31,820 bases of DNA from a virus (taxonomy: Duplodnaviria > Heunggongvirae > Uroviricota > Caudoviricetes), in IMG/VR virus record IMGVR_UViG_3300046820_002180, positions 1-31,820 of that record; one strand, written 5' to 3'. The translations under genes were made by a program, and so were the position numbers. Shown in pieces: positions 12,241-28,133 of this stretch. Below the pieces are notes generated by a model, which was not told where the DNA came from, searched no databases, and saw only the letters and a list, made by a program, of their open reading frames with translations. The number at the start of each line of letters is the position of its first letter. Position 1 is the stretch's first letter.

Positions 12241-13149
12241 ATGGCAGTAGGAAGTTACGGAACTATAAGACCTGCGGATGTTTCACCGGCCGATGTTGAT
12301 ATATATTATCACTTCGTTTCGGGTAGAACCGCTAGTACAGAAGTTCAATTTGAGAAGATAGATAACTCACAAGATATATTAACACCTGTATTCCACAATG
12401 ATTCAACAGGTGGTAATTCAGGTACTGAACTATTGGGTGGTATGTATAACCTAAAACTAGAATCATCAAGATTCTCTGAGTTGGGTATATATACATTATA
12501 CTTGAGACCAAAACAAATCAGAACAGTTGTTTCTGATTGTGGTGTATTGTCATCATTACCATCGGTTAGAGGATTGATTATTGACATTTCCCAAATCGAC
12601 GCTGGCGACACTAACAAATTTACACCCCAAGGTTTAGTAGGTTACCGAGTTGAGTACTTGGATGATTCAGGTGCTAAGATTCCTAATTTTTTTAGAATTG
12701 TTACCTCATCTTTTTACTGTGAACCAGTGTTATCGAATTTAACAAATTCATCACAAAAAGCAATTAGATACAGATATTCTGATATAACAACAAACTTAAT
12801 GTTTTTGACATTAACACCAAGCTCTTCACCGTCTAGTAGACCTAATACCATACCATTTATTGGTCAACCAAATCAAAATATCATTCTAACAAATACACAT
12901 TTTAATCCTGTTATGTTAGAAGTTGAAATGGTAGAACACGATGCAACAACATTGGCACACGCACTTTACGGTAATCAAAGTAAGTCGGTTGTTGATGGAA
13001 TTTACACGATTTATGACCAAAATAATAATATCTATAAGCAGTTTAACTTATACGAAATTAAAGACGATATTAACGAGACACTATACGAAATAAGAGAGAA
13101 GAATGATAATATCGACGAAACATTAAATTTTGATGTTATAACTCAATAA
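12241..13149 (+). CDS. Putative virion structural protein (302 aa)
   Basis: Clean ORF with an A-rich leader, TAATG-coupled to the 2137-aa gene. Confidence 0.6.
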
Positions 13150-16100
13150 TGGCTAAAATAACAAGAAAGGTCCCATATCAGGCGGCTAGTGGTGGTGAAA
13201 CGTTCAATGACAAGCTCATCGGTTTACAAATAACTGATGGTTCTAGTCAATTGGCCAATACCCAATTCCTTATTGATAGAGTAATTCCTGAAAAAGACAG
13301 TAAGACTTTTCACACACAACCATTTTCTGATTTCCTTACTTTAGATACATTAAAAGAAGAAACGAATTCAATTTATGATAATAACTCTACAGGTATTAAT
13401 TTACCTGATAGAAGTAAAAAAATTAAATTTCATAATTCTAAAAACGATGCGTCAAAATCTTTATTTGGTTCCTTATCAACAAGATTAAATGGTGCGGTTG
13501 GGAATATCATCGAAAGTTTTCCTGCCGCGTTATTGGTTGACGTCGACTCACCAGTTTCATCAACTAATGTTAGTGCGGTATTAACGGGTGCAACTCTCGG
13601 GTACGACCCAATTTCAAACACCACACAATTCCAATTTAAAAAATCTTTAATTTACAATCCATTTGATATTGTTATTCAAAGACCTCAAGGGGTTGAAGTT
13701 TTACAATCAACTAATTCATATAGAGATTTTTATTCATCATATACAAAATATGTGGTGGATAACCTCAGTGGTTCAACATATGAAATCGTTTCATACGAAG
13801 AACCTGATAATGATGGTTTTATTACATTAAAAGTAAAAGGATATTGTTTCGGTGGATATTCAATCTACACTGATAACTTTTTAATTAGACCAAATAATGG
13901 TGTAACTGAAGAATTCTTCAATAGTCTTGATGAATTAGAAACCGTATTATTAGATAGAGAATCAACACCCAAATATACCGCAGCATTTAGAATACCGACA
14001 GATTTATATGATGGAGCAGTCACAGAATTACAAAGTGAATTTGCAACTTGGCCATTAAGTCGAGATGGGTGGAACATACAAATAGTTGGTCTTGATTACG
14101 AATCATACGTTTCCGAATTAAGTAATATAGGTAATATTGTTGACGATTATAAATCAAACTTAATCATTAGATTTATGACGTCACCGCAACTTTATGAATT
14201 CGATACTGAAGGAAAAAAGGCGGAGGCAATCTTCCAACTTTATGGACAGAGTTTCGATAAGGTAAAGAAGTTTATTGACAATATTGCGTTTATGAGAAAT
14301 GTTAGCTATGATAAAGCTAACAACGTACCTGACGTATTGTTAAAAAATTTAGCGGAAACATTAGGTCTATCAACAGTCAATCTTTATGATGAAAAGTCAT
14401 TAGAAGAAACTCTTTATACAAGACATACTTCACAATACGAAGGACTTAATATAGGTGCTAATTTATTAGAGGGTGAGTATGAATTTTACAGAAGATTAAT
14501 TGTAAACCTTGCACAATTATATAAATCAAAAGGTACAAGATTAGCGATTGAATTCTTTTTAAAATTCATCGGTGCTCCTGAACCTATGATAAGGTTGGAT
14601 GAATACATCTATCGAGTTGATAGTTTACTACCAAAGGCCACATATGAAAATGATATTAGAGATGTAATCAATGGAGTAAAAGAATTTCAACACGTTGAGT
14701 TTGTACCATTTGCACAAACAATTGATGGTGTTGATTACAATGCATACACTTATAGATTGGTGACCACATCTGGTTCAACCGTACTATCAAGAAGTCAATA
14801 CCCTGTAACAACTGATGGATTACCGAGAGGATTGGAAAGTTCCGATGGTTCATTGTATTTTGCAATGGGTGCCGGTTGGTATAGAAAAACATTAGACCAC
14901 AGGTCTGGTGATATCTTAGACGTTGAAAATTCAGTACTTACGGGTAATACTAAAGTTCTTAAAACAAAATCAAAACCATTTACATATGGTGAAGATTATT
15001 TTAATAACTACAGAAAATTACCTGGTTTAGATTATGGTTACGATTTAAACATCGAAATTGATAATAGAAAAACTGAAGTATTAGATGACGATGGTAATTT
15101 TACATATAAATTAAACAGAAAAAATATTAATATTTTCTTAGATGGTTCAAGAGCAATCGATTATGACATCTATAGAAAAAGTAGAAACTTAACGTTGACT
15201 TTTGGTACTTTACCACCACAGGAAAGACCATCATTCGCCGAGTTTTTAAAAGAAGCGGTTAGTCAAGTAATTAGAAATTCAAGTACAATTAAGTACAAGA
15301 AAGAATACAGACTATTAAAACAAGTCTATGAATCGTATGTAAATAGCGTTTCATTTACACCGTACAATTACATTAAAATAAATGAATTTATTCAAAGAAT
15401 GAGTCCATATTGGGTTAATGTAATTGACCAATTCGTTCCTGCAACGACCCAATGGTTGGGAGGTAACTTAATAGAAAACGGAATATTCGGTAGGTCTAAA
15501 TTCCAATACAAACAACCTTGTACACCAAAAGAATTTGTTGAGGTATTATATCCTGATTTCGAAACTGTAATTGAGGAAGACTTAGAAACAATTTTAGGTG
15601 GAGGGACTACATCATATGAAAACGCATCCAATGAAGATAGTCTAAGAGGATTATTTTCATTTAGCGGTTTAACATATACAATTTATTTAAACATAAATGG
15701 TAATATCTATTCAGGAACAAGTTCAAACTTACGTTCAGAGCTTTTCTCAGGATACACACCAACGGTTAGATGTACTTCATTAACTCAAACATCTTTATCT
15801 GTTCCATTAATTTGTGATTACAAAAATTGGATTAATTTAAATTTACCATTAATTAAAAACAAATGGAAAGAAACATTAACAAATTTAGTACAAACAATTA
15901 ATAGTCAAATAACTCAAGACAACTATGGTTGTATTGATGATTATGCACCATACACGGCAAAGACACAAACAGCGAATTGTTCTCAAATTTATAAAAAGAC
16001 ACTTTCGTTAGAATATTTCTTAGATATTGATGGTGTTGAAAAGGTAAGATTTACATTAGATACTACCGATTGTAGAAACGGTGAAGATATTGATTTTTAT

Positions 16101-19100
16101 TTTGAACCGAATTATGGTTTAGATAAAGACGAATGTAATTTAAGAGTTGAATTGTCAGGACCGGCAATACCATATCAAGGAGTTACAAAAAATTGTCAAT
16201 TAGTTGAAGACGTATACATAACTGTTACAGGAGTAACAACAGGTGTTGAAAATAATGGTATTTGGGATTTAAACATATACGTTACAAGTGGAACAACTTG
16301 TAACTCGGGTGTATGTACTGATTGTGATTTTATTGAAATCAATGACCCTAAACCAATTAAGAGAGCAATATATGCTGACGATTTACAGTTAGTTACTTGT
16401 ACATATATCATCCCTAATGTTAAAGAAACAGACGTATATGATATTATTGTTTCCGACGCCGCAAACTGTGAACAAAAATTTAGAATTGAAGGATTACAAC
16501 AAAAGATAGTTAAAATTTCTGATGAAGTAAGTGGTTATACTATAAATCCAAAAGTTCAATACAAAACATCTTTCGATTATGGTATAAAGAAAGGGACCGA
16601 AATTTACAAATATATTTCAGGGTCAGTTCCAACAACTTGGCAAGGACTACAAAGTACTCTATCATCTGGTGGAGTTGTTGAGACATCAATCGAAGATATT
16701 GAAATAGGTGACACGATTTTAAGTATAAGTCAAAAAGATTGTAATTTACTTCCAACGGAAATGTTTAAGTTCGTTGAGAGTAACGGTTATCAATTTACCT
16801 TTGATTATTCATTAATAAAAGTAGTAAGAAAAGAATGTTTAAGTTCAATTAAGAAAGATGTTATTAATGGTGAGTTTGAAGTGTTACCAACAAGTAAAGT
16901 TTTGGTATACACTAACATTAATGAATACTTAGAAACTGTTCCATATCATTTTACATACAAATATCCTGAAGATTTATTTGTAAGACCTGAACAACCTGAA
17001 GTACCTTGTTGTGAATATCCTGAAGGACATTTTCAGAGTGGAGACTTTATGATAAGTCAATACGGTTTTCCTATTGAGGTAACAAGTGTTGATTTAAATT
17101 ATTGTAATAGAGGAATTTACTACACATTAGTAACATCAGGAACTTCAATCAATTCAGATACAATCTTATTTAATGGACCTTCAAGTGGTATTAATAGAAT
17201 TGTTGTGTCAACTAAAAATGATTCAGCATTCATTAGTCCATTTACAGGAAATAAATTTGAGTGTTTAGATATTGATACTCAACAATATTATTTAGGTTAT
17301 GAATGTGATAACGTACCGAGTGTTGAAAGTTTATTAAGATTAACAGGTTGTACCGATGGTAATTGTACTCAAGTACAGGCAGGACCAAATACACAAAGGT
17401 CATATATTGCTGAAGATACTACACCAACACCAACACCTAGTCCAACTCCAACTCCTACACCGACCCCTACAGGTACACCTACACCTACACCTACACCGAC
17501 ATCAACACCTACACCGACTAGTACTCCCACACCTACCGCAACAGGTACACCTACACCAACACCAACAATTACCCCAACACCTACCGCAACAGGTACACCT
17601 ACACCAACACCAACAATTACCCCAACACCTACCGCAACAGGTACACCTACACCAACACCAACAATTACCCCAACACCTACCGCAACAGGTACACCTACAC
17701 CAACACCAACAATTACCCCAACTCCTGTTTGTAACTTTAATGTGGGTGTAATTTTAGTATCGTCAACCCCAACTCCAACACCTACATCAACATCAACACC
17801 AACACCAACGCCTGTTTGTGACTTTAATGTAGGGGTTACTATTATAGCTTCAACACCGACTCCAACACCTACATCTACACCGACCCCAACTCCAACACCT
17901 GTTTGTGATTTTAACATAGGTGTTAACATTATTGCATCAACTCCAACTCCTACACCAACACCTACGAGTACTCCAACTCCTACCCCAACACCAACACCTA
18001 CACCGGTTTGTGATTTCGGTATTGGAGTGATAGTTATTGCATCTACACCAACTCCAACACCTACACCAACACCAACTAACACACCTACCAGTACTCCTAC
18101 GCCAACTCCGACACCTACACCAACTCCGGTTTGTGAATTTGGAATTGGAGTAACGATTATTGCATCTACACCAACACCAACACCCACTCCAACTAGTACA
18201 CCAACTAGTACTCCTACCAATACACCAACTGTAACTCCAACACCTACACCGGTTTGTGAATTTGGAATTGGAACAATTATTATCGCATCAACTCCAACAC
18301 CTACACCTACTAGCACACCAACACCGACAGCGACTGCTACACCAACACCAACTGCAACTGCAACTCCGACATCAACACCAACTAGTACACCAACTAGCAC
18401 ACCGACACCAACGGCAACTCCAATATGTGAATTTGGAATTGGAACAATTATTATCGCGTCAACACCGACTCCTACACCTACTAGCACACCGACTAATACA
18501 CCAACGCCAACACCTACAAGTACACCTACACCAACTGCCACAGGTACACCTACACCTACACCAACTAGTACACCAACTAGTACACCAACTAGTACACCAA
18601 CTAGTACGCCAACACCAACTGCAACTCCGGTTTGTGAATTTGGAATTGGGGTGATAGTTATTGCATCAACTCCAACACCTACACCTACAAGTACACCTAC
18701 ACCAACTGCAACTCCAACCGCAACTCCAACATCAACACCAGTACCACCTACAGAAACTCCTACACCTACACCAACAAGTACACCAACACCAACAAGTACA
18801 CCAACACCAACAGCTACAGCAACTCCAACGCCAACTGCAACTCCAATATGTGAATTTGGAATTGGTGTGGTAGTTATTGCTTCGACCCCAACACCGACCC
18901 CAACTAATACACCAACTAGCACACCGACCCCAACGCCGACTAATACACCAATACCAACTGACACTCCAACACCGACACCTACTAATACACCAATACCAAC
19001 CGACACACCAACGCCAACACCAACTAACACACCTACTAATACACCAATACCAACCGACACACCAACGCCAACACCAACTAACACACCTACGCCAACACCA

Positions 19101-19562
19101 ACTAACACACCTACCCCTACACCAACAGAGACCCCAACACCTTGTGTGGCGACTATTACTAATACAAGTAACCCAACAAGTTGTGGATTTAACGCTGACG
19201 GTTCATTAACATTAAATGGTTCAGGTGGGGTTGGTCCGTACACGTATTATTTATATGAGGACACAACATTCCCTTATGAAACATCGGGAGGTAGTGTTTA
19301 TCCTGGATTCCCTGTAACTAACCAAACAGGTGGTTACAATGTAACAGGATTAGTACCTGGTGGATATTACTTAAGAATTGTAGATGCGAACGGATGTGAA
19401 GACTTTAGTGAAGTTGTGGTATTACCATATGACGACACTACTTGTGTGACCCCACCACCAACAACATATTTCTGTAAAGAAAATGAAATGAGTCCTTGTC
19501 TTGAACAAGTAAGTCCTTGTACCGGAAGCCAAATAGTTTGTACACAATTTGAACAAGTTTAA
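13149..19562 (+). CDS. Giant baseplate wedge protein (gp7 / P2 gpI-like region) fused to a degenerate Hint domain, a Thr-Pro stalk with nine Cys beads, an SprB-type repeat and a Cys-rich tip
   Basis: [14 protein letters not shown]...[28 protein letters not shown] is the P2-I/gp7-type signature. Hint-like blocks at 16581-17219, TP region at 17418-19142, SprB-like repeat from 19143. Confidence 0.75.
16581..17219 (+). other. Degenerate (probably catalytically dead) Hint/intein-like domain inside the 2137-aa protein
   Basis: Ordered blocks [42 protein letters not shown]...[26 protein letters not shown]...DTILFNG...IVVSTKN follow the Hint pattern. Cys1 is replaced by Gly, the TxxH His is missing and there is no HN. 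Confidence 0.6.
17418..19142 (+). repeat. Thr-Pro (mucin-like) coding repeat, about 575 aa, interrupted by nine P[VI]CxFx[VI]Gxx[ILV][IV][AS]S units
   Basis: ACN-CCN codon repeats. Cys codons at 17730, 17817, 17904, 18009, 18132, 18255, 18426, 18633 and 18849. Confidence 0.97.
17529..17720 (+). repeat. Perfect tandem repeat, 4 x 48 bp ([16 protein letters not shown])
   Basis: Unit acacctaccgcaacaggtacacctacaccaacaccaacaattacccca at 17529, 17577, 17625 and 17673. Confidence 0.95.
19143..19430 (+). other. SprB-type repeat domain (Bacteroidota adhesin-like)
   Basis: [25 protein letters not shown]...[18 protein letters not shown] matches the SprB repeat pattern SC...DGSI....SGG..PYTY...GL..G.Y...V.DANGC. 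Confidence 0.8.
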
Positions 19563-19590
19563 GCCTTTAGAATTATAATAAAAAATAAGA

Positions 19591-19597
19591 TATTTAT
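19591..19597 (+). promoter_or_regulatory. TATTTAT motif, putative late promoter of the Hint + 228-aa cassette
   Basis: 22 nt upstream of the ATG at 19620. Confidence 0.55.
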
Positions 19598-19619
19598 ATA
19601 AAACAAAACAAGCGCTAAA

Positions 19620-20123
19620 ATGAAAAATAATCAAAAAGGATGTTTAATCCAAGGAACATTAATCTCAATGGCTGACGGAACTTCAAAATTAATTGAAGAA
19701 GTTGTTGTTGGTGATGAAGTTAAATCAATTAAATTAAATCAAGAAGCTGGAGTATTTGAAGAAGTTGTAGGTACTGTTGTTGAATTACAACAAGCTGAAA
19801 CTGAATTAGTATACTCAATAAACAATGGTTTAATCGTTGCATCTGAAGACCATAAACATATTGTTAGACAAAAAACACCAGAAGGTGATGCGTACACTGA
19901 AAGATGGATTGTATGTGACACTACTTTTGTTGTTGCTGATGATAAAATGATGGGTGCGGATGGTATTGAAATTGAAGTAACGGATAAAGAAGAGGTTACA
20001 GGAACTAAAACAGTTCATAACTTAGTGATAGAAAACCATAACACATTTATTGCAAATGGTGTTATAACCTATAACGAGATTTTACCTGAGGTAACGGAAG
20101 AAGAAACTCCGGCAGGAGAGTAA
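19620..20123 (+). CDS. Free-standing Hint (bacterial intein-like, BIL-type) domain protein
   Basis: G|CLIQGTLISMADG, IEEVVVGDEV, block B ASEDH, block F/G VHNLVIENHNTFIANGVITYN. The Hint spans residues 8-152, with a 7-aa N-flank and a 15-aa acidic C-flank. Confidence 0.88.
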   Translation: MKNNQKGCLIQGTLISMADGTSKLIEEVVVGDEVKSIKLNQEAGVFEEVVGTVVELQQAETELVYSINNGLIVASEDHKHIVRQKTPEGDAYTERWIVCDTTFVVADDKMMGADGIEIEVTDKEEVTGTKTVHNLVIENHNTFIANGVITYNEILPEVTEEETPAGE

Positions 20124-20141
20124 TTTAAACAAATTTAAAAT

Positions 20142-20828
20142 ATGTTAGCAAGATTTTATTTATCAGGACCATTTTCAGCATCGACATTGTCTGATAATTT
20201 TACAATAGTGGGTAACCCTGGTAATTACATAACCACGGGTGTAACAAAGTCACAAATGCAATATCCTTCATATAAAGAGATTGTATTTCTCGATTCAGTG
20301 ACAGGAGGTACAGTTACCGCAGTTGGTGGTACTTGTAACGGAACATCAGTAAATTGGTCCGTGATTCAAGCAACCCCAACCCCAACACCAACACCAACTC
20401 CAACACAAACACAAGGAGATGGATTATGTTACAGTTATGAAGTTAGTGATACTGTAAATCAAAATAATTATGGTGTAAGATATACTGACCCTAACGTTGG
20501 TACAAGTCAAGATGTTAAATTTAATATGTTACCGGGAGATGATGGTAATAGTTTTACAACATTCAACATATGTAGTACTGTTGACCCAACATTACTTGAT
20601 TACACAGGAGGTTCTCCTACTGGTGTTGGTTCGGTACCTGGTGTGGCACGTTTTGGTGGTCTTACTCCTTGTGAATCATCTTTTGATTGTACCACACCAC
20701 CAGCAACTGAATACTGTTATGTGAACGGACAATCTGTAGTAGTGGGACCTTTCTCTACATTACAAGAATGTCAAGCAGCTGCAGGTTCTTTTGTATGTAA
20801 CCAATGTGTTGGTACTCCACAACCTTAA
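20142..20828 (+). CDS. TP-linker, Cys-rich modular protein (228 aa), putative virion decoration/adhesin
   Basis: Small N-domain with a single Cys, a TP linker, a module shared with the next gene and a Cys-rich tip. No signal peptide. Confidence 0.7.
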   Translation: MLARFYLSGPFSASTLSDNFTIVGNPGNYITTGVTKSQMQYPSYKEIVFLDSVTGGTVTAVGGTCNGTSVNWSVIQATPTPTPTPTPTQTQGDGLCYSYEVSDTVNQNNYGVRYTDPNVGTSQDVKFNMLPGDDGNSFTTFNICSTVDPTLLDYTGGSPTGVGSVPGVARFGGLTPCESSFDCTTPPATEYCYVNGQSVVVGPFSTLQECQAAAGSFVCNQCVGTPQP

Positions 20829-20853
20829 AAGTATAATTAAAATTTATAAAATT

Positions 20854-20881
20854 AAACCCCTTTATTTTAAGGGGTTTTTTT
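20854..20881 (+). terminator. Rho-independent terminator
   Basis: AAACCCCTT-TATTTT-AAGGGGTTT followed by a T run. Confidence 0.85.
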
Positions 20882-20913
20882 ATGGTTTATTTTTAATAAA
20901 AAAAAGGATATAC

Positions 20914-20920
20914 TATTTAT
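20914..20920 (+). promoter_or_regulatory. TATTTAT motif, putative late promoter
   Basis: 5 nt upstream of the ATG at 20926. Confidence 0.6.
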
Positions 20921-20925
20921 GTATT

Positions 20926-22656
20926 ATGGGATTAGTAATTAGACTGCACGACATTGTATCACCTAGTGTGAGCGGGTTTACCGTTTCATATAAAGAAGGT
21001 AGTTCACCATACCCAATGAATAGTGGGTATATCACATATGCAGATTTTCCATCAGGAACATCCACAGTTAATATTAGTGGAGTAACATTAAATTTTAATA
21101 GTAATTATTGGGTTAAAATTACCGATAAATTTACAGGTAGATATATTATTGAGAATATTGAGACGAATGACCCAATTGCTTATATGGACTGTTGTCCTCA
21201 ACCAGTTGGTTTAGGGGCAGTTTGTTATCATAGTTGTTACCCACCAACAATTAATAGTATTACTTGTGTTGGATTGGTACCACCGACAGCAACTCCGACT
21301 CCGACTCCGACTCCGACTCCGACTCCTACACCAACAGCAACTGTAATAGGACCAACCGCCACCCCAACTCCAACTCCTACAAGTACCCCCACACCAACAC
21401 CGACACCAACAGAAACAGGTGATAGTTGCTTGTGTTATTGCGTCACTTATGATGTGAATGATTTACCAAATGACTTATATGTTAGATACTCTGTTTGTGG
21501 AACTGCGAGTGTTGAAACAGAATTAATTTCTGCAATAGAAAGTATGGATAATGGTGATGGAACCACAACTGCGTGTATTTGTGTGAAACAAGGTGGGGCA
21601 TATTCAACACCGGTATGTGTACAGGGAGGTCTTGAAATACTTTGTCCTGAGGGAGTTACTTGGTCAATGGGTAGTAGTTGTACATCATCCGCCACTTGTT
21701 TTATAGTGAGTGACCCTACACCAACAGCAACCCCAACTCCAACCCCTACACCTACAGCAACCCCAACACCTTATTATTTATTATTAAGTCGTTGTGATTC
21801 TGCACCAAATACAGTAACAGGATGGACTATGAATGCGTACACACAATCACAAATAATGGTTGGCGATATATTCTATTCTGCTGGACAATATTATTATCAA
21901 GTGATTAATTATCAAACAGCACAACCAAATCCTGCAGGTATTATAGATGGTACTAAGTCAAATGATTACACATCTTGCGACCAAACACCCGGACATTATG
22001 TTGCACCAACACCTGACCCAGGACAATCAATATTAATTCATATAGGACAAACATTTAGTAACACAACCCAACCTTGTGCAATGTATGAATCTGCAATTGC
22101 AACCAATAGTGCTACGGTATACTTAAATGGACATAACATACCGGTTAATGGTGATTATGCATATAACACCGCCGCTTGTAATGTTGGTGATGAATATAGT
22201 GGTAACTCTAATTACTATGCTGCACTTGCTAATAGTACTAGATATACATTTACAATTGGAAGTGGGGGATATATTAATAACGTTACAGCTTGTGGAGCAA
22301 TACCAACAGCAACTGCGACTCCTACACCAACTCCTACCCCGACCTCTATACCATTAGTTGGATTGTTTAAGTCACAAGGATTGTTAGAATTTAATAGTCA
22401 TTGTGGTAATAACTATTTAATCAATAGTCCATTCTATGGTGAAACAACTTCAATTAATAGTTTATACGGAACATACGTATATTCAGACACAAACTACACA
22501 CCACTTGATGGTGAAAGTAAATGGTATGCGGTAGGTAGTGATGACCAAGCGAATACTTCAGATTTACCATACTACTCAGTACAAATTGCGGGTAATGGCG
22601 AAGTAACAAGTGTTCAATACATAACAAGCTGTTCTGGTGGAGGAAGTCAGGCATAA
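20926..22656 (+). CDS. TP-linker, Cys-rich multi-module protein (576 aa), putative decoration/adhesin
   Basis: Start revised from 20791 to 20926 (MGLVIRL), because the longer version overlaps the previous gene and crosses a terminator. Several TP linkers separate the modules. Ends CSGGGSQA. Confidence 0.75.
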   Translation: MGLVIRLHDIVSPSVSGFTVSYKEGSSPYPMNSGYITYADFPSGTSTVNISGVTLNFNSNYWVKITDKFTGRYIIENIETNDPIAYMDCCPQPVGLGAVCYHSCYPPTINSITCVGLVPPTATPTPTPTPTPTPTPTATVIGPTATPTPTPTSTPTPTPTPTETGDSCLCYCVTYDVNDLPNDLYVRYSVCGTASVETELISAIESMDNGDGTTTACICVKQGGAYSTPVCVQGGLEILCPEGVTWSMGSSCTSSATCFIVSDPTPTATPTPTPTPTATPTPYYLLLSRCDSAPNTVTGWTMNAYTQSQIMVGDIFYSAGQYYYQVINYQTAQPNPAGIIDGTKSNDYTSCDQTPGHYVAPTPDPGQSILIHIGQTFSNTTQPCAMYESAIATNSATVYLNGHNIPVNGDYAYNTAACNVGDEYSGNSNYYAALANSTRYTFTIGSGGYINNVTACGAIPTATATPTPTPTPTSIPLVGLFKSQGLLEFNSHCGNNYLINSPFYGETTSINSLYGTYVYSDTNYTPLDGESKWYAVGSDDQANTSDLPYYSVQIAGNGEVTSVQYITSCSGGGSQA

Positions 22657-22679
22657 TGAAATAAAATTATAAATAAAAA

Positions 22680-24113
22680 ATGGCAGTAGCAAGCATAACG
22701 GTTAATTACACGGCGAGTTGTACAGGATGTACACAAGAATATAGGTATGCCCTTAGTAGTGGTAATATCAATACCGCTACAGTTATACCATATTCAGGTT
22801 CGTCACCTATAGTCATTACAGGTTTAACGACGGGTAATTCGTATGTTTTTCAAATGAGAAATGTGTGTGAATTAATTTCAAGTGATTGGACAAGTGTACA
22901 AACCGTAACCTGTGAAGGAGTAATAACACCTACAGCCACACCTACAGCCACACCTACAGCAACTCCTACTCCTACACCAACGGCAACTGTGGCGGGACCT
23001 ACTGCAACACCAACACCTACACCTACTCCGACCGCAACTATTGCAGTACCAACCCCAACCCCAACACCGACCCCTACATTGAATATAGTTGACCCTGAAG
23101 ACCCAATAGTATATTATTACTATGCTTTAGGTAATTGTAATGATATGAGATACTCAGGTACCGAAACGACTGTTTTTGGTATTGGAGCACCATTAGTGGT
23201 TCCTGTTTGTATGACCTCTGCACAAATTACTCAATGGTATTCTACAGCTAATTTTGCACAACAATCGTTAAGTATTGATTACGACGACCCTTGTGGTTTT
23301 GGTGATAACTATTCGGGAGTTGCCATTGGTAGAAGTACCACACAATTAACAGAAGGAACAGTTTATCTTGTTGGTAACAATTGTTTATCAATTGTTGCAG
23401 TTGAAACACAATACGTTCAAAATTGGAGCGTGAATTTAGATGGAATCTCACCAATAGGTGGTGATAATCCTTGTGGAGCTTGTGACCCACCATTTACAGG
23501 ATATACACTTGCAGGATATAGTGGTGTGACTTGTGATACAGGTGAAAATATCCTTGCGGTATCAATACTTGGTAGTTTAGTGGTGGGTAATGAATATGGA
23601 ATACAATTGTATAGTGGGAATACTCCTATGGCCAATACTAGATGTATGACTATCAACGCCAATCTTGGTCCTCAACTTACTCTTACGGACCCAATAAATA
23701 ATCCATATTCAGGACATCATATCACAGATGGAGGACCATTTGTGTTAGGACAACCAATATTCCAAGGATATACCGATTGTGGAACTTGTAATGCAACACC
23801 TAAAAAATATAAAATAGATGGAGTAAGGTGTGACAACTCTCAATATAGTGTAACTGTATGGTCAAATACATTACCAACAATTGGAATTAACGATACGTTT
23901 AGAGTTAATGATTCATTCTTAAACACATTCTGTTGGAAGGTAATAGCAAAAGATAATTATAAAACAGTAGTATATGGATATCCTGAATATAGTATTTTGG
24001 ATACAGGATGTTCACCTTGTGACGGAACCCCACCAACAACACCAGCACCTACTCCAACCGATAGTGGAGGAAGTGGAGGTAGTGGAGGAAGCTCTGGAGG
24101 ATACAGCGGTTAA
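22680..24113 (+). CDS. FN3-like N-domain + TP linker + three Cys-rich repeats (477 aa), putative adhesin
   Basis: ITGLTTGNSYVFQMRNVC...SDW is FN3-like. Three repeats end in CxxC (CGAC, CGTC, CSPC). Gly/Ser tail. Confidence 0.75.
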   Translation: MAVASITVNYTASCTGCTQEYRYALSSGNINTATVIPYSGSSPIVITGLTTGNSYVFQMRNVCELISSDWTSVQTVTCEGVITPTATPTATPTATPTPTPTATVAGPTATPTPTPTPTATIAVPTPTPTPTPTLNIVDPEDPIVYYYYALGNCNDMRYSGTETTVFGIGAPLVVPVCMTSAQITQWYSTANFAQQSLSIDYDDPCGFGDNYSGVAIGRSTTQLTEGTVYLVGNNCLSIVAVETQYVQNWSVNLDGISPIGGDNPCGACDPPFTGYTLAGYSGVTCDTGENILAVSILGSLVVGNEYGIQLYSGNTPMANTRCMTINANLGPQLTLTDPINNPYSGHHITDGGPFVLGQPIFQGYTDCGTCNATPKKYKIDGVRCDNSQYSVTVWSNTLPTIGINDTFRVNDSFLNTFCWKVIAKDNYKTVVYGYPEYSILDTGCSPCDGTPPTTPAPTPTDSGGSGGSGGSSGGYSG

Positions 24114-24127
24114 AAAAAATTAAATAT

Positions 24128-24772
24128 ATGGGAACATTTAATAGAGAAGCTAATTTAAACGATAGTGTTTTTTTTCAAAGAGGAGTTGTTAAAACAACAA
24201 ATCATTGGACAAGACCATCGTATCAAAAAGTCTATGATTTTTTATTTAATTTATATCTTAAATCAACAATCATTAAAGATTATGATGTTTATTTAATGGG
24301 AGGAGTTTTATTTGATTTCAATAACACTTGGGATTTAGATATGTGTCTTGTCGGAGGTAACCACACTGATGAAAAAATAGAAAAAGATTTAAATTTTATG
24401 ATGGATATGGGATTAAATCAATTTAATCTATTATTAGATGTTACTTGGTATGAACAAAGACCATCCAATTTAAGATATGACCAAATGGTTGAAAACGAGT
24501 TTAAACCGGACAATATTATTCACAAAAAAATAGGATATACCAAAAAACAAATTAATAATGAATTTGAAGAAAAAGATTTAAGAAATGACTCAAACTTTAT
24601 TTTATTGAGTGACTATTTGGTTCAAGGAAATTATGGAGTAAATGGTAGACATACCGAAAAAATGATAAATAAAGTTCAAAATAACACGAAACCGGAAACA
24701 ATAACAACATTTAGTGTTATGGATTTTTTAAAAGAAAATGAAAGTTATTTCCATTCTAACACAAATAGATAA
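24128..24772 (+). CDS. Pol-beta-superfamily nucleotidyltransferase-like protein (214 aa)
   Basis: VYLMGGVL-x6-WDLDMCL gives the hG[GS]...DxD motif. The third acidic residue is in LLLDVTW. Confidence 0.7.
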   Translation: MGTFNREANLNDSVFFQRGVVKTTNHWTRPSYQKVYDFLFNLYLKSTIIKDYDVYLMGGVLFDFNNTWDLDMCLVGGNHTDEKIEKDLNFMMDMGLNQFNLLLDVTWYEQRPSNLRYDQMVENEFKPDNIIHKKIGYTKKQINNEFEEKDLRNDSNFILLSDYLVQGNYGVNGRHTEKMINKVQNNTKPETITTFSVMDFLKENESYFHSNTNR

Positions 24773-24784
24773 AATAAAAAAACG

Positions 24785-24791
24785 TATTTAT
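24785..24791 (+). promoter_or_regulatory. TATTTAT motif, putative late promoter
   Basis: 5 nt upstream of the ATG at 24797. Confidence 0.6.
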
Positions 24792-24796
24792 ACTAA

Positions 24797-25918
24797 ATGG
24801 CACAATTAATATTAACTTGGTCACCACCGGCAGATTGTAGCGGATGTACTTACGAATATAGGTATAAGTTATCAAGCGCATCGACGTATGTGACAGGTGC
24901 AACTAGTAATACTATTGTGACTATTAATGGATTAATTGATGCACAAACATACAATTATAGTGTTAGGACTATATGTCCTGATGCTGGTGGTAATTTAAGA
25001 AGTAGATGGTTAAATAATAGTTCAGTTACTTGTAACACGAATCCACCATTACAACCCACACCTACACCAACAATTACCCCAACACCTACCGCAACGGGTA
25101 CACCTACACCAACCCCTACACCGACAGCAACGGTATCGGCACCAACCGTAACTCCGACCCCTACACCGACTCCTACTCCTACAACAACTGTTGGTTCTTG
25201 TTTAAGTGGTACATTAGAAGCTACAGGTAATTGTTCGGGTTATGAGTCGTCAACATTTACATTAGCAAGTGGATATCAAGCAACAATTACACCATCGGGA
25301 TATTTCTTTAGTGGTACAGGAACAAGATATGCATATGCTTACTTAAGAACAAACACAGGTACAAATATTCAAGAGTTTATATTAACACAAACTAACAGTA
25401 ATACTCCAACTTTTTCACCTGCAACATACACAATCACAACACCGGGAACATATCAATTATATGGTCAACAGGTCAATTGTGGTCAAAATGGTGGAACAGG
25501 TGGTTCAGGTCTTATTAAATTAACTGTTGGTAATTGTCAAGTTTTATCAACCCCAACACCGACCCCTACACCAACGTCAGCACCTTTAAATAGATTTTAT
25601 GTAGCCTCACCGGTTGCTGATATTGATACAACATATTGTGTTTCGCCTGGTTATGTATTAACAGGTGCACTATGGTCATATGCAACTACAGTAAGTGGTT
25701 TAATGAATCAACAAGTTTATATTGACCAATATGGTGATGATGTGTTCGTTGGAGTAGATGGTTATAAGTATGGAATTTCTTTAACAGCGGGAATAAATAC
25801 ATATACTGATGGAACATCTAACTATTATTTAATTCAAATCGACCAATATGGGTATGTATATAATGTACTAGCACCAAATTGTGGTACTTCTGGAGGTGGA
25901 GGTGATATACCACTATAA
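24797..25918 (+). CDS. FN3-like N-domain + TP linkers + two modules (373 aa), putative adhesin
   Basis: LTWSPP...CSGCTYEYRYK...INGLIDAQTYNYSVRTIC is paralogous to the N-domain of 22680-24113. The C-module resembles the last module of 20926-22656. Ends CGTSGGGGDIPL. Confidence 0.75.
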   Translation: MAQLILTWSPPADCSGCTYEYRYKLSSASTYVTGATSNTIVTINGLIDAQTYNYSVRTICPDAGGNLRSRWLNNSSVTCNTNPPLQPTPTPTITPTPTATGTPTPTPTPTATVSAPTVTPTPTPTPTPTTTVGSCLSGTLEATGNCSGYESSTFTLASGYQATITPSGYFFSGTGTRYAYAYLRTNTGTNIQEFILTQTNSNTPTFSPATYTITTPGTYQLYGQQVNCGQNGGTGGSGLIKLTVGNCQVLSTPTPTPTPTSAPLNRFYVASPVADIDTTYCVSPGYVLTGALWSYATTVSGLMNQQVYIDQYGDDVFVGVDGYKYGISLTAGINTYTDGTSNYYLIQIDQYGYVYNVLAPNCGTSGGGGDIPL

Positions 25919-25934
25919 TAAAACATAAAAAGAA

Positions 25935-25941
25935 TATTTAT
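25935..25941 (+). promoter_or_regulatory. TATTTAT motif, putative late promoter
   Basis: 5 nt upstream of the ATG at 25947. Confidence 0.6.
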
Positions 25942-25946
25942 AACAT

Positions 25947-28133
25947 ATGAGTTTTTTACACGAGAATGAATCAGAACATATAGCAGCAAGAATTACCAAT
26001 GAGGGTAGACAAAAAATTGCTGAAGGTAATTTCAACATTACCTACTTCCAAGTGGGTGATTCTGAATACGACTATAATTTTGAGGAGTATGACGGTACTA
26101 CCGGTACCACAAACCCATCTCAAAAGGTATTCACACCTTTGGATAAAGATTCTATTGTAAAATATCCATATAAATTATCAGAATCTACAGTCACAGGTAC
26201 AACATTCGGTAACCCCGTTCAAGTTTCTCAAATTGAAACAATTAGAAATGAAATGGGACCTGCTGGATTTGTTTCTGCTTATTTAGAATATGATGGAATT
26301 CCTTGTACAGGGACAACAGTTGAATGTTCAAATGAAAAAATACCTGTTTCTGCATTATCAGGAACTACAACGTTATACTTAACTGGAAATACATTTTCAA
26401 ATTGTGAGTTTATTACAATAGCATTTACTGAATTAGTTGGTACTGACTTAAATTGTCCAATTATTTCTGGCACATCAACAAGTTTAATATATAGAGTAAC
26501 AAATTTTGTTTCAGGATTAACGTTTAACACATTAACATTAGATAGAGCAACTCCGAGTATGTCAAACATATGTTCGGGAGGTTCGGCGACTGTTATGTGT
26601 AATAAATGTAATCCATTTTTCCCTGGTCCATATGAAACTGATTTAACTTGTTTACCAAATACACAAAACCCTGAAGACCAACAAGACCCTTGGACATTAA
26701 ACATTGTGTGGAGTGAAAGACCTGCGGGTGTTAAAAATCAAGGAGCTGAGATACAAGAATATGTTAGTGGATACACAAGTAACGTATTTGTTTCAACCAA
26801 AGAATTTTTAGGATATGGTTCTTCATCAGGACAGACAGTTAACACAGGTACAACCATCACAAATAGTTTTGGTGATTCTGTAATTGTTTTACCTGAGGAA
26901 CAACATAGTATTGCTATTATTCATTATTCAGAACTTAATACAGAAAGAGAACCTGAAAAATTCTTTAAGTATGAAGATTATATTAGTACTAATAATAGTG
27001 TAGTAGATGCTTTATTATACGATTCAGATGATGAGCCGGTAACAGACTTAGATTATTTTGAAGTTTATATTCCATTTATTTATTATCATAGAAATACAGG
27101 GACAACAGTAGGTGCAAGATTCACAATGGACACTACAGATTATTTTGTTAACTCTACAGCTATTGATACTAAATTAAATAAATTAAAATATAGATATCTT
27201 TTAGATGAAAGAGGATATAGAGTAGGTAGAGTTTATGTAAATCATAAAGTAATTGTATTTGACGACCAAGAAATTGTTGCAGTCTTAGATTACAAATCTA
27301 ATAGAAAATACACCTTACCAATTCCAAGAGTTGCACAAGTTCCTGTTGATACTAAATGTAGCACAACAGGAAACCCGTTAGAACCTTTAATGAGTGGAAC
27401 AACAGGTCAAACTGTTTTTGTAACATATCTATTAGAATTTAGTGGGTCAACTTCATTACATTGTAATCACTATTCAAAAATTACAGGTACATCATTAAAT
27501 GCTGATATATCATTTAGATTCTCAGACAATGATTGGGTTCATATGAAATCAACCAAGTGTGGATTTAAAAATGGATTTATAGCTGACAAATTATATGCGT
27601 TAGTTCAATTGGTAGATACAGGAGACCAACCACAAACAGATTTGTGGAGAAAAATTAACATTACATCTGATATTCCGAACCATATGGCTATGAGTGGTAA
27701 CACAGGAGGATTAATTGACCCTGATAATCTTAGAGGTGCTCGTTTTGTAATAACAAACGATGATTATGATAATGTGATTAATTATGTACCATACGACATT
27801 GAAGACCATTTAGGTGAATTACCGAATCAACCGGCACCTTATGATAACGGTAGTTTTTATCAAACCACACCTCAATTTGGAGACGAACAACCATTCCCTG
27901 GTAGTATTAAATTGGTAAGAGCTTCTGACTTAACGGTTATGAGATTTTTAGTAAACCTACCAAATGGTGAATTTACCACAACACAAAATCCAAGTTATAC
28001 AACAGGTAAAACCAAACGAATAACTGAAGTCGGTTTATTCAATAGTAACAAAGAACTTTTAGTTATTGGTAAAACACCAAAACCAATTCATAGAGTGGGT
28101 ACACAAGTTTTTGCAGTAAAAATTGACCTCTAA
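25947..28133 (+). CDS. Baseplate / tail-fibre attachment protein (tail-collar-fibre, DUF3751-like termini) with a large insertion
   Basis: N-terminal ARITNEGRQKIA...ITYFQVGDSE and C-terminal ITEVGLFNSNKELLVIGKTPKPI match the two ends of the P2 gpH-N/DUF3751-like fold. Confidence 0.65.
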   Translation: MSFLHENESEHIAARITNEGRQKIAEGNFNITYFQVGDSEYDYNFEEYDGTTGTTNPSQKVFTPLDKDSIVKYPYKLSESTVTGTTFGNPVQVSQIETIRNEMGPAGFVSAYLEYDGIPCTGTTVECSNEKIPVSALSGTTTLYLTGNTFSNCEFITIAFTELVGTDLNCPIISGTSTSLIYRVTNFVSGLTFNTLTLDRATPSMSNICSGGSATVMCNKCNPFFPGPYETDLTCLPNTQNPEDQQDPWTLNIVWSERPAGVKNQGAEIQEYVSGYTSNVFVSTKEFLGYGSSSGQTVNTGTTITNSFGDSVIVLPEEQHSIAIIHYSELNTEREPEKFFKYEDYISTNNSVVDALLYDSDDEPVTDLDYFEVYIPFIYYHRNTGTTVGARFTMDTTDYFVNSTAIDTKLNKLKYRYLLDERGYRVGRVYVNHKVIVFDDQEIVAVLDYKSNRKYTLPIPRVAQVPVDTKCSTTGNPLEPLMSGTTGQTVFVTYLLEFSGSTSLHCNHYSKITGTSLNADISFRFSDNDWVHMKSTKCGFKNGFIADKLYALVQLVDTGDQPQTDLWRKINITSDIPNHMAMSGNTGGLIDPDNLRGARFVITNDDYDNVINYVPYDIEDHLGELPNQPAPYDNGSFYQTTPQFGDEQPFPGSIKLVRASDLTVMRFLVNLPNGEFTTTQNPSYTTGKTKRITEVGLFNSNKELLVIGKTPKPIHRVGTQVFAVKIDL

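Follow-up and report, generated by a model that had tools for sequence, protein, structure and literature searches.

The window analysed here comprises 31,820 nucleotides (nt) of a virus of the Caudoviricetes, the first 31.8 kb of the 160-kb record IMGVR_UViG_3300046820_002180, which is estimated to be 48% complete. Between a gene for a large wedge-like protein, here called W, and a conserved gene of 728 codons, it holds a run of genes for proteins with Thr-Pro (TP) stalks, namely TP228, TP576, TP477 and TP373, together with a stand-alone Hint protein (Hint167) and a nucleotidyltransferase (NTase). It is likely that this block specifies a hierarchical plug-and-socket appendage on the phage baseplate, the parts of which are joined by docking. 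All of these open reading frames (ORFs) were found where a preliminary description of the same DNA had placed them, and its proposal of branched, exchangeable appendages built by docking agrees with the shuffling of modules, the co-occurrence of plugs and sockets, the split-FN3 anatomy and, weakly, a complex prediction.

In the proposed mechanism, every accessory protein has at its N-terminus a six-stranded FN3-like sandwich, the socket, that would lack strand A, and the absent strand would be supplied in trans by a Cys-led peptide, the plug, of another protein. W would be seated in the baseplate, where each of the nine CxF beads in its stalk would hold one TP228, the Hint-containing segment would hold TP576, and the two plugs of TP576 would in turn hold TP477 and TP373. 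The plug Cys would then pair with a free Cys at the F-G turn of the socket, probably once the cell has lysed; for the FN3 pair this would make two bonds. Recombination in the TP linkers would swap outer modules while the joints are kept, and adsorption would thereby be retuned; the Hint protein would be dispensable and unable to join TP proteins, and the NTase an optional add-on. If W were six-fold, full occupancy would amount to 54 copies of TP228 and six of each of the others. The most elaborate form of the proposal, a self-assembling, disulfide-locked two-tier tree with dozens of modules, at least four specific split-FN3 codes, a dead-Hint root and an NTase-marked Gly/Tyr tail, is rather doubtful as a whole.

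Sockets, plugs and exchangeable modules

The split is most readily seen in the N-domain family shared by TP373 and TP477, seven of whose ten members match PF00041 (best E 1.1e-6). Strands B to G carry the Trp, Tyr and Leu-x-x-x-x-x-Tyr pattern of FN3, the Pfam fn3 match to TP373 begins at profile position 16, which is residue 4 of the protein, and FN3 chains of the PDB match from about residue 17; read from its sequence, the domain is FN3 from strand B on, with no strand A in the same chain. Cys60, in the F-G turn, and Cys79, where strand G ends, are both invariant. Among intact FN3 homologs from a search of 1.84 billion proteins, CxxP at the start of strand A accompanied an F-G Cys in 94 of 138 domains, as against 3 of 1039 domains without that Cys, although the repeat domains are not independent and the pair is carried by 13 proteins. 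The CxxP-x6-C peptides of TP576 fit the profile of this intact strand A. Moreover, in the 43 adapter-bearing loci, CxxP-x6-C is found on the adapter in all seven with FN3 sockets and in none of the 36 without (three of three independent pairs concordant). The two peptides of TP576 probably take TP477 and TP373. An incomplete domain and a separate peptide matching its absent strand are both present in the block.

Other adapters carry other peptides. CxF[ST]GG accompanies family-2 sockets (10/0/4/29; in such strings of four counts, loci with both features come first, loci with one of the two alone next and loci with neither last), and CYDTxxF accompanies families 3 and 4 (18/1/0/24 and 16/3/0/24). 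In four loci CYDTxxF directly precedes the family-4 domain in a single chain; this fusion is the unsplit form, and it accounts for mismatches such as L044 and L081. Several of the plug classes are apparently orthogonal.

For TP228 the split is read from a structural model. The predicted N-domain is a six-stranded sandwich (predicted local distance difference test, pLDDT, 85) whose alignment to FN3 chains starts at residue 14-20 and leaves their first strand unmatched; most of the top rows are FN3, with Z of only 5-6. Strand A thus appears to be missing in the model. The domain was N-terminal in 120 of 120 matches from a search for longer proteins, one of them with an 18-aa (amino-acid) leader, and three loci carry a TP228-type domain internally. 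When a bead and the TP228 socket were predicted as a complex, the score was 0.41, compared with 0.02 for the best control; runs shared at least 73% of contacts and partner pLDDT was at least 56. The pass mark was reached by 58 of 80 solved pairs and 2 of 110 mismatched pairs, and those passing at 0.60 or below were just seven solved pairs and both mismatched ones. In the 28 complete blocks compared, stalks bearing at least two CxF beads tend to occur together with family-1 sockets of the TP228 subtype (11/1/2/14); the beads showed no association with the adapter, with FN3 sockets or with family-5 sockets (p 1, 0.13 and 0.25). The nine CxF beads probably take TP228, the complex prediction lending weak support. 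Minimal adapters of 112-116 aa, with one socket and one terminal bead, were also found (L013:5671-6021, L022:6688-7038 and L005:1618-1956).

The beaded stalk and the SprB repeat noted earlier in W were both recovered, the former with nine beads of consensus CxFx[VI]x[VI] spaced by 29, 29, 35, 41, 41, 57, 69 and 72 aa. Spacers grow outwards in all 15 multi-bead stalks (Spearman 0.54-0.99), which may provide room for docked proteins in a widening cone. The W head is 40-55% identical to that of distant relatives and lies 3' of gp25 and the baseplate J/wedge genes. In the segment between head and stalk, a dead Hint had been suggested; a probable dead Hint at aa ~1144-1343 is favoured by the order of its motifs and by ESM Atlas features, which score 0.88-0.90 against Hint families, whereas hhalign, Pfam and PDB profile searches of this part gave no significant match. 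W has lost Cys1, the His of block B and the Asn at the end, and 12-16 homologs likewise lack Cys1, this His and a His-Asn. The segment, aa ~970-1410, is present in 22 of 22 complete blocks with a TP576-type adapter and in 0 of 6 without one (22/0/0/6, two of the 22 rows being duplicates), and four of four independent pairs are concordant. On the simplest reading of this co-occurrence, the segment may anchor the TP576 adapter.

In nearly all relatives the interval from W to the 728-aa gene holds a series of T/P-stalked genes, and its content varies even at 90-94% core identity; the locus is a hypervariable accessory block of freshwater phages of about 300 kb. About 200 accessory proteins carry N-domains of 75-105 aa that fall into about eight families, of which families 1, 2 and 5 are homologous to one another. 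Behind these domains the modules are shuffled: TP228 N-domains are near-identical between loci yet followed by unrelated C-halves, and the outer modules of the four TP proteins of the window occur elsewhere behind up to four N-domain families. The TP373 linker at 25064-25113 and the 48-bp stalk repeat at 17559-17608 are identical at 49 of 50 nt, a sign of recent gene-to-gene exchange. Two of the complete blocks, L049 (6874-9960) and L072 (5954-9976), have no accessory genes, a short W being followed by the 728-aa gene; they are natural minimal baseplates, and because of them the whole appendage is taken to be dispensable.

The Hint protein and the nucleotidyltransferase

Hint167 and the NTase had been listed among the components of the system, but they are not core parts, since each is present in only 3 of the 28 complete blocks and a relative at 90% identity has no NTase. 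Neither gene, on the other hand, proved independent of TP genes, an outcome that would have spoken against the preliminary description: close NTase homologs and catalytic Hints lie inside T/P-stalk gene blocks, and for this reason both are seen as optional add-ons of the TP system.

The best PDB match of Hint167 by profile is Tetrahymena BIL2 (E 5e-12), and its Pfam Hint-clan matches are below cut-off (best E 3.7e-4). With the Hint domains of BIL type (BIL2, PDB 6TMM/6Y75; PMC8616854) it shares Cys1 (Cys8) and the block B His (His78), both conserved, a terminal Asn (Asn152) and the lack of a +1 nucleophile, the next residue being Glu. Unlike BIL2, it has almost no exteins (7 aa on the N-terminal and 15 aa on the C-terminal side), no host protein around it and nothing large to cleave or conjugate; because of the seven-residue N-extein, it cannot splice or join adhesins. 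Read-through from W into Hint167 was considered and rejected, as two in-frame stops intervene here and the frame offset is a different one in L002. The stand-alone gene is confined to the closest relatives, and against L002 it shows 25 synonymous and 21 non-synonymous codon changes, compared with 64 and 6 for RuvC, which shows relaxed purifying selection. Most likely, Hint167 is a module that has become detached and whose role is structural or minor.

A related Hint with Cys1 is found in six other loci within a stalked accessory protein, as an internal or a C-terminal module, and there BIL2-like conjugation would be chemically possible. An accessory gene occurs with a 157-aa Hint insert between two Cys repeats in L017:3186-4121, the +1 residue being Ile, and without it in L092:3655-4119. 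A second, weak Hint-like match in the record (E 0.003) lies near the end of a 496-aa ORF at G000:C1:99380-100870 and ends in His-Asn-Thr, followed by a Cys/Trp-rich tail.

The NTase, of the Pol-beta family, carries the motif GG-x9-DxD and Asp104 and so meets the signature hG[GS]-x9-13-DxD plus a third acidic residue; among 44 homologs G58, G59 and D104 are invariant and D69 and D71 at least 90% conserved. Its model (pLDDT 92) finds mostly NTases among the top structure matches, but with E values no better than 0.04 and Z values of at most 5.3; ESM similarity to PF01909 clusters is 0.92, and a PDB sequence search gave no match. Homologs at 37-98% identity lie within T/P-rich structural gene runs and the most distant ones (32-34%) outside them, and its presence or absence changes five times on the tree.

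The gene before the NTase ends in a Gly-rich tail in all eight TP blocks that hold an NTase, compared with 8 of 249 other accessory genes, and in a terminal GGY in 6 of 8, compared with 0 of 249. The TP477 module ends in such a tail when the NTase follows (10 sequences) and otherwise runs into another domain (4 sequences from 3 genomes), and the tail is also found after unrelated modules. Given the rest of the proposal, it is conceivable, with somewhat less than even chances, that the NTase acts on or binds the TP477 tail. MntA adenylylates Tyr of a neighbouring gene's product (PMC7641770), and nucleotidylation of the tail is for that reason the first guess. The NTase resembles MntA and other minimal nucleotidyltransferases in the G[GS]-x-DxD signature, the third Asp and a weak fold match (Z about 5); it differs in its 214 aa and its surroundings, in that no HEPN gene is adjacent and the neighbours are TP-stalk genes, the fixed one encoding a structural protein with a Gly-rich tail. 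It is nearly as likely that the linkage reflects a cassette travelling with a recombination-prone repeat of Gly codons.

Further arrangements of such genes were seen. In L090:5134-7413, from a phage that lacks this baseplate context, family-1 socket genes flank an NTase on both sides, and the protein upstream of the NTase has no parts other than a socket, a stalk and a Gly tail. Another TP block (L061:8097-8543) holds an NTase-like gene of a different, unrelated kind, recognised by eye from G-S and then D-x-D.

Docking weighed against other readings

Several points weigh against the docking proposal. The complex score of 0.41 falls where passes are often wrong and may stem from resemblance to solved FN3 folds, and the bead-TP228 joint is the only one of the four proposed joints for which a complex was predicted. 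The likeness of the TP576 N-domain to FN3 is weak (best E 0.003), and a plug for it was not pinned down in W. The co-occurrences were counted over 57 locus rows, two of which duplicate L004 and L047; each comes down to 2-5 independent pairs, a number with which a sign test cannot reach significance, and neighbouring genes are also co-inherited. The assignment of W as a gp7/P2-I-like wedge protein, made in the preliminary description, draws on operon position and on sub-threshold matches: Tail_P2_I-like regions were found in 16 of 34 W homologs, the best at E 0.019 and so below cut-off, and Baseplate_wedge matches were also sub-threshold. Furthermore, searches of GenBank and cultured phages with W and the 728-aa protein gave no match.

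The joints would be dispensable if the accessory proteins decorated the particle independently, their N-domains folding alone and binding a tail or capsid lattice in the manner of Hoc-type Ig proteins, while the beads paired to bundle or cross-link stalks. The confident model of the TP228 domain on its own and the presence of beads on several proteins within one genome are consistent with this, as is the family-1 domain that starts T/P-stalked genes in L090, in another genomic context with no 728-aa gene. We regard it as unlikely, however, because it accounts neither for the matching of three plug types to three socket families, nor for the four loci with a plug fused ahead of its socket, nor for the retention in the FN3 sockets of the Cys that pairs with strand A. 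Alternatively, since Cys-rich, mucin-like, SprB-bearing proteins resemble surface proteins of Bacteroidota, the accessory proteins might be no part of the virion and work inside or on the infected cell, or once it has lysed, as decoys or in aggregation. The chance of this appears small: W and the TP proteins have no hydrophobic N-terminal stretch by crude hydropathy, in line with the earlier remark that signal peptides are absent, their genes sit in the baseplate operon behind the upstream motif of structural genes, and the wedge-like protein itself carries the largest scaffold as a fusion.

Least probable, and only marginally credible, is the ligation of adhesin modules that had been suggested earlier, in which the Hint pair and the NTase would covalently join the modules to the stalk or activate them. 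Hint chemistry acts on its own flanks, and the tiny exteins, the Glu at +1 and the rarity of Hint167, together with the loss of catalytic residues in W, led us to reject it for this genome. The precedent for ligation is that BIL2, the best structural relative of Hint167, conjugates its N-extein to other proteins (PMC8616854), and Cys1-bearing Hints do occur inside stalked accessory proteins of the six related loci. Catalytic Hints and the NTase also co-occur above expectation (4/4/1/48), but the association is mostly gone in independent pairs (about 1 of 5) and was inflated by the way loci were found, four of the eight NTase-carrying loci having been found via the NTase itself. Plugs and sockets, by comparison with the few blocks holding a Hint or an NTase, are present in nearly all, and docking remains the reading that we prefer.

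Genome setting, related systems and implications

The features of the block are collected in the table. In the window, nrdA, gp25 and the baseplate J/wedge genes precede the TP block, and RuvC, primase-like and nuclease genes follow it; a GC-richer intergenic stretch with a hairpin lies 3' of nrdA (2424-2584). Long fibre-like genes are found elsewhere in the genome, at 52-65 kb and 105-110 kb. In the likely source run, cover is even over the unique parts of the locus and identical contigs exist, making an assembly artefact unlikely; a further run, X4, had a thinly covered NTase bin between deep flanks and was not used, because contigs cannot show absence.

Features of the block (window positions)
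Feature	Position	Strand	Remarks
W	13149-19562	+	2137 aa
W head, aa 1-969	13149..16055	+	conserved baseplate-wedge-like part; probable baseplate anchor
W segment, aa ~970-1410	16056..17378	+	probable dead Hint at aa ~1144-1343; candidate TP576 docking site
Thr-Pro stalk of W	17418..19142	+	575 aa; 68% Thr+Pro
Nine CxF plug strands in stalk	starts 17730, 17817, 17904, 18009, 18132, 18255, 18426, 18633, 18849	+	
W tip	19143..19562	+	SprB-repeat domain (PF13573, E 1.2e-6, over Pfam cut-off) and Cys-rich end
TATTTAT	19591..19597; also 20914, 24785, 25935	+	probable late promoter or initiation element
Hint167	19620..20123	+	167 aa; BIL-type; Cys8, His78, Tyr-Asn then Glu; optional
TP228	20142..20828	+	228 aa; family-1 socket 20142-20375 with invariant Cys65; short linker; exchangeable C-module
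Intrinsic-terminator-like hairpin	20854..20877	both	before adapter gene
TP576	20926..22656	+	near-universal adapter; family-0 N-domain; TP linkers; four shuffled modules
Two CxxP-x6-C plugs of TP576	21193-21225 and 21235-21267	+	directly after its N-domain
TP477	22680..24113	+	FN3 socket without strand A 22680-22925; stalk; Cys-rich module; Gly/Ser-rich tail
TP477 Gly/Ser-rich tail	about 24060-24110	+	ends Tyr-Ser-Gly
NTase	24128..24772	+	214 aa; Pol-beta family; optional; no TATTTAT of its own
TP373	24797..25918	+	FN3 socket without strand A 24797-25045; stalk; two shuffled modules
728-aa gene	25947..28133	+	conserved; closes block

Of the promoter motifs and terminator described earlier, the TATTTAT motif and a conserved hairpin hold, whereas a generic scan for sigma-70 promoters and terminators gave counts at chance level. 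TATTTAT stands 5-45 nt before an ORF start in 23 of its 37 genome copies, the highest value among its permutations, and precedes the Hint, TP576, TP373 and 728-aa genes and none of eight NTase genes; in 8 of the 23 cases it lies 11-13 nt from the start codon, which suggests nearly leaderless late transcripts or an initiation element. The hairpin is kept before the adapter gene, with varying loops, in L001, L002, L018, L050 and L077. TP576 starts at the ATG that its homologs use; a TTG start giving 621 aa was rejected, as the terminator would fall in the extension.

The product of the 728-aa gene is likely structural. Family and PDB searches with it found no match, so the earlier label of fibre attachment has no tool support; by eye, its ends resemble the N-terminal domain of P2 gpH. 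The motif [ST]GxT, a possible modification sequon, occurs 59 times between 4925 and 28133 (17 expected from shuffled proteins) and 15 times in the 728-aa protein (1.2 expected), with no enrichment in the fibre-like genes at 52-68 kb. For mucin-like glycosylation, better candidates than the NTase are the glycosyltransferases encoded at 113-118 kb (G000:C1:113447-118382), where accessory enzymes are numerous; there are five of them, three GT2 and two PF00534, and all exceed the Pfam cut-off.

Relatives of the record are uncultured phages with contigs of up to 335 kb, and a large, myovirus-like phage is proposed. The best matches of nrdA, among those listed, are mostly from Tenacibaculum and Cellulophaga phages, and the host is probably a member of the Bacteroidota. 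The ribosomal-type gene bS21 is encoded by all three relatives checked and was not found in the 48% of the genome represented by the record itself. Genome size, freshwater origin, baseplate genes and, in the three relatives, bS21 are shared with the bS21-encoding huge phages of fresh water, which reach about 330 kb and have predicted Bacteroidetes hosts (PMC9723584); the passages of that paper that were consulted give no account of this locus. A literature search, mostly without subscription papers, likewise found no description of it.

Strand complementation as such is already known; the system described here is nevertheless real and unusual. In chaperone-usher and type V pili, an incomplete Ig-like fold is completed by a strand from another chain. 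These pili are linear secreted polymers that depend on chaperones or proteases and replace the last strand, whereas here strand A of an FN3-like fold would be donated, in a branched tree assembled in the cytoplasm. The layout also recalls the cellulosome, in which docking sites are repeated along a scaffold on Thr-Pro linkers, further scaffolds act as adapters, pairing is type-specific and modules are exchangeable, although peptide plugs would here replace folded cohesins; at E 0.1 no block protein had a Pfam match to cohesin or dockerin, and no secretion signal was found either. The solved phage precedent for a strand-completing joint is the BppU-BppA pair of Lactococcus phage Tuc2009, in which an extension of a baseplate protein completes the beta-sheet of a titin/Ig-like domain that belongs to an accessory protein with carbohydrate-binding function (PMC4742702). 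Tuc2009 uses one hairpin for one partner on a rigid baseplate; here the proposed joint uses a single first strand, present in many copies on long disordered stalks; the plugs fall into several classes that appear orthogonal, docking would occur in two tiers, and a disulfide lock is predicted. Hierarchical docking of primary, secondary and tertiary receptor-binding proteins on the baseplate of jumbo phages is known from the branched tailspikes of phiKp24, G7C and CBA120 (PMC9700779). Those are trimeric beta-helical depolymerases docked via T4 gp10-like domains, and neither such docking domains nor a trimeric beta-helix had a Pfam or PHROG match in the block proteins.

If the docking proposal is true, uncultured freshwater jumbo phages of an abundant clade assemble their adsorption apparatus in a cellulosome-like manner, from monomeric modules on disordered stalks, and rigid trimeric fibres would not be the sole adsorption design in that clade. 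Host range would then change through the swapping of modules behind fixed joints. The plug-socket pairs, being small and of apparently orthogonal classes, might serve as protein-coupling tags, and the coupling of tail and NTase offers a concrete guess at the substrate of an orphan viral NTase family.

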